Source: Escherichia coli (GTDB lineage: Bacteria > Pseudomonadota > Gammaproteobacteria > Enterobacterales > Enterobacteriaceae). From it: DNA of 64,000 nucleotides. The notes below the pieces were generated by a model. It saw only the letters and a list, made by a program, of their open reading frames with translations. It was not told the DNA's origin and ran no database searches. The position numbers and the translations under genes are program-made. Of the stretch, positions 12,051-12,430 are shown one piece after another (the first letter of the stretch is position 1; each line of letters starts with the position of its first letter). The stretch lies in the NCBI RefSeq assembly GCF_001677475.2, contig NZ_CP015229.1; one strand, 5' to 3'.

Positions 12051-12430
12051 AACAACCTCTCTTATAATTATGGGTATTCTACGGAAACAATATACCGTGG
12101 TGAAGCTAATTTACTCGATTGCTGCGATGACTACCTCCGGGGGACAAACCTTATGTAAATACTATGGTCCTGCGGTGATGATTTGTATGTGATACACAGC
12201 AACATTTCGAGATATTCATACGGCATCTAATACTTATTTAATTCTGGTTAAAATACAGACAGATAACAAGATGAATATTCTTAATGTTTACGTTAAAAAT
12301 GTTTAATATTATTTAATAGTTGTTAATTTGAATACTTCAATAATGTTATATTTCCTGATAATCATTTGCAGGCAAAATGTTTTCACTCTTAAATGAGTAT
12401 TTATTCTCATAAATCGAAAAAGGATTCATT

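Follow-up and report, generated by a model that had tools for sequence, protein, structure and literature searches.

The AT-rich tract upstream of yffB in Escherichia coli is probably an ordinary control region of the yffB-dapE-ypfN operon

Immediately upstream of yffB, Escherichia coli carries a stretch of DNA that is strikingly rich in A and T, and we asked what this stretch is: a hub for nucleoid proteins, a promoter region, or the seat of an unannotated small RNA, as an earlier note made from the sequence had variously proposed. The window, meaning the whole 64,000-nucleotide stretch of DNA that was analysed, is E. coli chromosome. It holds narQ, acrD, ypfM (minus strand), yffB, dapE, ypfN and ypfH in the gene order annotated for K-12, and a 921-bp query around the tract matched 5425 of 5426 complete E. 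coli genomes, with 97.6–100% identity in 29 of 30 sampled E. coli matches and no annotated feature under the tract. Window coordinates correspond to NC_000913.3 coordinates minus 2578816, or to U00096.2 coordinates minus 2576838, a conversion verified on three published start-site flanks. acrD ends at 11892, with terminators after it; the gap between ypfM and yffB measures 380 bp, as in K-12, and holds the AT-rich tract (Table 1).

To the right of the gap lies dapE, whose product acts as an enzyme in the lysine and peptidoglycan pathway. In an RNA-seq compendium, yffB, dapE and ypfN are given as co-transcribed (Tjaden 2023). We gathered the yffB locus from 80 Enterobacterales species plus one Salmonella contig (L083). 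A ypfM-like ORF lay divergently upstream of yffB in 62 Enterobacterales loci examined, and the divergent ypfM/yffB arrangement is therefore ancestral; the YpfM peptide itself is identical in Escherichia, Salmonella, Citrobacter, Kluyvera, Yokenella and Trabulsiella.

Measurement of base composition bore out the extreme AT-richness of the tract: positions 12190–12430 are 24.5% GC (75.5% A+T over 241 bp), compared to 52.1% GC for the whole window. Among all 241-bp stretches of the 64 kb the tract ranks second in AT content: only 0.05% are lower in GC, and the sole more AT-rich place is at 50773–51013. Its core (12276–12350) falls to 14% GC, and the sequence quoted in the earlier note was located at 12238–12345. 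To call it "nearly devoid of G/C", as that note did, was nonetheless an overstatement, as G and C make up about 59 of the 241 positions. At three positions (12235, 12339 and 12387) the source strain has A or T where all or most other sampled E. coli alleles have G or C, so that its tract is slightly more AT-rich than the species norm; strain Ec-U3 has an allele identical to the source strain's tract. Elsewhere in the window, the pdeF(yfgF)/yfgG/yfgH region (50212–51013, 23–26% GC) is the only stretch that is equally AT-rich.

Table 1. Features in and around the ypfM/yffB gap, in window coordinates
Feature	Position	Strand	Description
ypfM CDS	11991-12050	minus	19 aa, MIERELGNWKDFIEVMLRK; annotated in K-12 and other genomes; borders the gap on the left, outside the tract
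Main ypfM promoter	12069-12104	minus	-35 TTCACC 12104-12099, 17-bp spacer, -10 TAGAAT 12081-12076, start 12069
Weak second ypfM start site	12179	minus	2589017(-), count 2 versus 4 at the main site (Kim 2012); 129-nt leader
Conserved 27-bp block	12188-12214	none	TGTGAYNNAYNGCAAYATTYTGAAATA (E. coli: TGTGATACACAGCAACATTTCGAGATA); candidate operator or upstream promoter element
Distal yffB promoter candidate	12214-12241	plus	TTCATA-16-TTTAAT; proposed bioinformatically (Shimada 2014, PMC3946193)
AT-rich spacer	12215-12343	none	129 bp, 21% GC (79% A+T), non-conserved; upstream of the yffB core promoter
yffB core promoter	12323-12352	plus	-35 TTAATT 12323-12328 (weak), 18-bp spacer, extended -10 TGtTATATT 12344-12352
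yffB-dapE-ypfN 5' leader (predicted)	12360-12430	plus	71 nt, AU-rich, unstructured; Shine-Dalgarno AAGGA 12420-12424
yffB CDS	12431-12787	plus	ArsC-family reductase, PF03960; first gene of yffB-dapE-ypfN
Internal dapE promoter	12484-12521	plus	inside the yffB CDS; TTGGCT-16-GACTAT, start 12521; hexamers from the promoter scan
dapE CDS	12791-13918		

We conclude that the tract is probably the ordinary control region of the yffB-dapE-ypfN operon, in which a spacer lies upstream of a conserved promoter, with an untranslated leader after it. A position-weight scan of 11990–12520 revealed two sites far above the rest: the main ypfM promoter, with the top score (11.1), and TTAATT-18-TGtTATATT upstream of yffB, the second-best sigma-70 site in this interval with a score of 10.0, which ranks roughly in the top 22–47 among ~128,000 window positions. 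At the latter site, T12344, G12345 and t12346 are followed by the -10 hexamer TATATT (12347–12352), placing the TG one base upstream of the hexamer; the hexamer matches TATAAT at 5 of 6 positions and has both the A at position 2 and the T at position 6, while the -35 sequence TTAATT is poor. The extended -10 motif, TGTTATATT, is exact in all 13 Escherichia, Salmonella and Citrobacter sequences compared, exact also in Enterobacter (Enterobacter cloacae), and unchanged across 9 E. coli alleles. In its TG before a 5/6 hexamer, its poor -35 and its A/T-rich upstream DNA, the site resembles the extended -10 (TGn) sigma-70 promoters, differing from them in that the E. coli yffB start is taken from the Salmonella orthologue. 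RNA polymerase would recognise the TGn plus -10 motif at yffB, for which a good -35 is not needed, and its alpha subunits could find an UP-like contact in the A/T-rich DNA at -40 to -60.

The likely position of the start comes from Salmonella, where the yffB start has been mapped to -97 and a reporter built from that nucleotide onwards (Frohlich et al. 2016, PMC5137417). This nucleotide is L083 position 1904, lies 8 nt after the TATATT hexamer, and corresponds to window position 12360; by homology to the Salmonella start and from the motif, we infer that E. coli yffB transcription begins at ~12360. Genomic SELEX with RpoD holoenzyme, performed in vitro, gave a peak in the ypfM/yffB spacer at 2589272, at array-probe resolution and with a low relative intensity of 0.10 (Shimada 2014, PMC3946193). 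Converted to window coordinates the peak falls at ~12434, the yffB end of the gap, nearer to the core promoter than to the distal candidate at 12214–12241. The analysis assigns to yffB-dapE-ypfN a concrete promoter, TGtTATATT, whose predicted start is ~12360, and a leader of 71 nt; beyond annotation its importance is slight.

It had also been proposed that the tract holds the promoter for both yffB-dapE and ypfM. For yffB this stands, on the evidence of the conserved extended -10, the Salmonella start and the RpoD peak, but the main ypfM promoter lies ~90 bp outside the tract. The experimental ypfM start, 2588907(-) (Kim 2012), converts to window position 12069 and is identical to the start that our scan predicted, which validates the promoter scan; the same hexamers, TTCACC and TAGAAT, are given by Shimada 2014 (PMC3946193), and the resulting leader is 19 nt long. 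Only the promoter of the weak second ypfM start, at 12179, would reach into the tract, overlapping 12186–12214 and with it the tract's first 25 bp; reading the sequence by eye, we found no good -10 or -35 match for this start.

On the other strand, the E. coli start-site table of Kim 2012 has no plus-strand start upstream of yffB, which suggests that the yffB promoter was weak or silenced under the conditions of that study; nor does the ROSE supplement have an entry for a yffB start site. The only plus-strand start near yffB-dapE in Kim 2012 is 2589359(+), assigned to dapE, with a count of 8 that is above either ypfM site. It converts to 12521, inside the yffB coding sequence.

The predicted leader has a fold z-score of +0.39 and no terminator, and most of its length is near chance identity, the Shine-Dalgarno region (12416–12426) being conserved. 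We considered and rejected a riboswitch or attenuator leader, given the lack of a stable fold, of a terminator and of a conserved leader peptide; an 11-codon upstream ORF (12377–12412) is absent in E. albertii and Salmonella (alignments read by eye). In Salmonella, the segment from -97 to +75 is the one through which the small RNA SdsR represses yffB (Frohlich et al. 2016, PMC5137417). That gene (STM2482), a validated SdsR target (PMC5137417), lies in the same gene order as E. coli yffB, has an identical TGTTATATT and has an AU-rich leader ending in AAGGATTCA. The two leaders differ in length (71 nt in E. coli versus 97 nt in Salmonella) and cannot be aligned over most of it, and the 110 bp upstream of the yffB start have a GC content of 0.19 in E. 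coli versus 0.34 in Salmonella.

Two further regulators have been connected with the Salmonella locus: yffB is up 2.6-fold in a fur mutant, with a Fur box predicted elsewhere in the leader, and a MarA ChIP peak lies in ypfM<>yffB. In E. coli, a 13/19 match to the Fur box (GATAATGATAATCATTATC) at 12351–12369 overlaps the predicted start; 17% of shuffles give at least as many hits, which leaves this match within what chance would produce at such a base composition. Salmonella and Citrobacter carry GGAATCATTATTCAC, with the Fur-box-like core AATCATTAT, over the yffB -35 region (L083 1858–1872 in Salmonella); E. coli does not, and has TGATAATCATTTGC just after the yffB -10 in place of this core. 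The GGAATCATTATTCAC over the Salmonella -35 region may be related to the reported Fur effect on Salmonella yffB.

What, then, does the AT-rich spacer upstream of the promoter contribute? Regions bound or silenced by H-NS typically extend over more than 100 bp at about 70% A+T or more, and the tract has 75.5% A+T over 241 bp and 79% over 12215–12343. The high-affinity nucleation motif of H-NS, which Lang and colleagues in 2007 reportedly gave as tCG(t/a)T(a/t)AATT, has no match in the tract at 9 or more of 10 positions, where shuffles give 0.45. Scans of the tract with consensus patterns for Fur, H-NS, IHF, Fis, CRP, ArcA, Mar, Lrp and ArgR likewise gave nothing above shuffles.

Binding itself is on record: genomic SELEX in vitro marked the ypfM/yffB spacer as holding an H-NS site, unplaced within the spacer, and likewise marked the yfgF(pdeF)/yfgG spacer as bound by RpoD and H-NS (Shimada 2014, PMC3946193). 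From AT content, the H-NS site likely falls within 12215–12343. The tract and the gap are largely documented, the spacer being already catalogued as binding RNA polymerase and H-NS. It belongs with the H-NS-marked divergent "type-A" spacers of K-12, which have constitutive RpoD promoters (PMC3946193), in being an AT-rich divergent gap bound by RpoD and H-NS in SELEX, and ypfM/yffB is itself an entry among them; it differs from them in lying in the core genome, not in horizontally acquired DNA, and in that neither curvature nor the H-NS nucleation motif was found in it. AT-rich DNA is a substrate for H-NS, and H-NS bound here would be expected to damp the yffB promoter in vivo. Such damping fits the absence of a yffB start in Kim 2012, where the promoter inside yffB serves dapE.

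It is possible, though less likely than not, that the AT excess of the spacer has no selected function, and that weakly constrained filler has drifted to A/T, with H-NS and RNA polymerase binding in vitro as a passive consequence. Across 45 aligned species, the AT core (~12225–12340) is near chance identity with many indels. Comparison with E. albertii shows 27 differences over the 129 positions of the spacer (21%), with A/T in E. coli against G/C in E. albertii at 18 and the reverse at 5; on the ypfM side of the gap, divergence is 11%, about half as frequent, with balanced differences (7 versus 8). The extreme value is specific to E. coli, whose spacer GC of 0.21 is the lowest of the 45 species (others 0.30–0.54; E. 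albertii 31%). No transcription-factor consensus is enriched over shuffles in the tract, and the tract is absent in one isolate, F374.

Several observations speak against pure drift. Gap length does not depart from 380 bp among the E. coli alleles examined, and 387–389 bp is the typical value for many other genera. In each of the 45 species the spacer is richer in A and T than its flanks (median 0.37 versus 0.55 GC). It also adjoins, on the upstream side, a promoter whose -35 is weak, a setting in which UP-like A/T DNA matters. Drift is, moreover, compatible with the promoter and leader explanation that we favour, disputing only whether the AT excess is adaptive. The E. coli-specific AT enrichment is a modest lead, a case that might be used on a small scale to study how DNA of the core genome becomes a target of H-NS.

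In isolate F374 (NZ_OY754371.1, L085 3596–4540), an IS1A with an adjacent deletion replaces window ~12146–12613. Most of the gap is lost in this isolate, including the yffB promoter, as are the 5' half of yffB and the dapE promoter inside it; dapE itself is intact, which indicates that the tract is dispensable, at least with IS1 upstream of dapE. Approximately 43 of the 5426 matching E. coli records lack at least 80% coverage of the gap, which suggests occasional disruptions.

Conservation within the gap is confined to islands: ypfM with its leader and promoter (to ~12104), 12111–12119, 12160–12166, the 27-bp block at 12188–12214, TGTTATATT at 12344–12352, and 12416–12426. The columns of the block are invariant in alignments of 20 sequences and of 45 species, and the block occurs at 21 or more of its 24 specified positions in ~50 of 72 Enterobacterales species, usually ~251 bp before the yffB ATG. 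It lies 9–35 bp upstream of the 12179 start, ~120–145 bp upstream of the main ypfM start and ~150–170 bp upstream of the yffB start. No further copy was found in E. coli, making it single-copy. It did not match the consensus patterns for CRP, Mar, Fur, ArcA, Lrp, ArgR, IHF or Fis, and comparison by eye with CRP, the marbox, sigma-54, sigma-32, sigma-E, PurR, CytR, MetR, Cra, the DnaA-box and matS gave no convincing fit. A minus-strand ORF beginning MNISK was rejected as a coding explanation: its apparent conservation arises only from overlap with the 27-bp DNA block. The start codon of this ORF is not conserved outside Escherichia and Citrobacter, and Yokenella, Trabulsiella, Kluyvera and Pseudocitrobacter lack it.

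A more elaborate scheme, which we regard as fairly unlikely, would make the block the operator of a transcription factor that co-regulates YpfM and yffB-dapE-ypfN and would add, in E. coli, AT-driven silencing of the yffB promoter by H-NS, leaving dapE dependent on the promoter inside yffB. As a deeply conserved 27-bp element, the block is likewise a modest lead.

Were the distal site TTCATA-16-TTTAAT the main yffB promoter, its leader would be ~183 nt long and run over the whole AT core. This site was given as the best-match promoter for the SELEX peak (Shimada 2014, PMC3946193), and conservation of the TTCATA region spans Escherichia and Citrobacter; we nevertheless consider it an improbable main promoter, since its -10 TTTAAT lacks the key A at position 2, is absent from the top 30 position-weight scores and is not conserved in Citrobacter. 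The SELEX peak, moreover, lies ~200 bp away at the yffB end, the Salmonella yffB start sits at the proximal motif, and Kim 2012 reports no start at the distal promoter. In placing the yffB promoter at the extended -10 motif, the analysis corrects the distal promoter proposed bioinformatically in 2014.

Very improbable is an intrinsically curved architectural hub for Fis, IHF and H-NS built of phased A-tracts. The phased A/T runs that had been described did not appear on analysis: AA/TT periodicity of 10–11 bp is absent, the power at this period being below the dinucleotide-shuffle mean, with 92% of shuffles reaching or exceeding the observed maximum. Curvature was predicted under three dinucleotide-wedge models that used parameters of the dnacurve package. 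All three gave a tract mean of 10–12 degrees per 30 bp, the same as random AT-rich DNA (9–13 degrees) and about a quarter to a third of that of true phased A6 tracts (35–41 degrees), so that the proposal of curved DNA fails. A single moderate local bend of 22–26 degrees at ~12394, in the 97.5–99.5th percentile of the window, is the one prediction in its favour, together with the published in vitro binding of H-NS to the ypfM/yffB spacer. Of the nucleoid-protein hub, that H-NS binding is the part that survives; its Fis and IHF components do not, as the tract has no match to the Fis consensus and none to the IHF consensus at 8 or more of 9 positions (shuffles give 1.5), and the argument from curvature falls with the models.

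That the tract encodes an unannotated small RNA, antisense RNA or small protein is hardly credible: there are several weak promoter-like sites on both strands (e.g. minus-strand TTGTTA-17-CAGAAT, score 7.9) and mechanical small ORFs, but an Rfam scan with E-values up to 10 placed nothing inside the tract, a terminator scan of 12190–12430 returned no sites, fold z-scores of six segments on both strands (-0.7 to +1.2) were none stabler than shuffles, the core is not conserved, none of six small ORFs checked is conserved (in E. albertii or Citrobacter they are interrupted by stop codons), no inverted or tandem repeat turned up, and Kim 2012 has no start site inside the tract. Together, these analyses lend no support here to reading an AT-rich tract of this kind as "curved DNA" or as a "hidden small RNA". 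A search for direct, inverted and tandem repeats yielded only one 18-nt two-copy match, probably due to chance. The only Rfam match, STnc250 (11892–12011, minus strand), lies outside the tract, over ypfM and its 3' region, and its 37.5 bits fall short of the 42-bit threshold. The name STnc250 stands for the ypfM mRNA of Salmonella, which is bound by Hfq and runs at ~220 nt on Northern blots.
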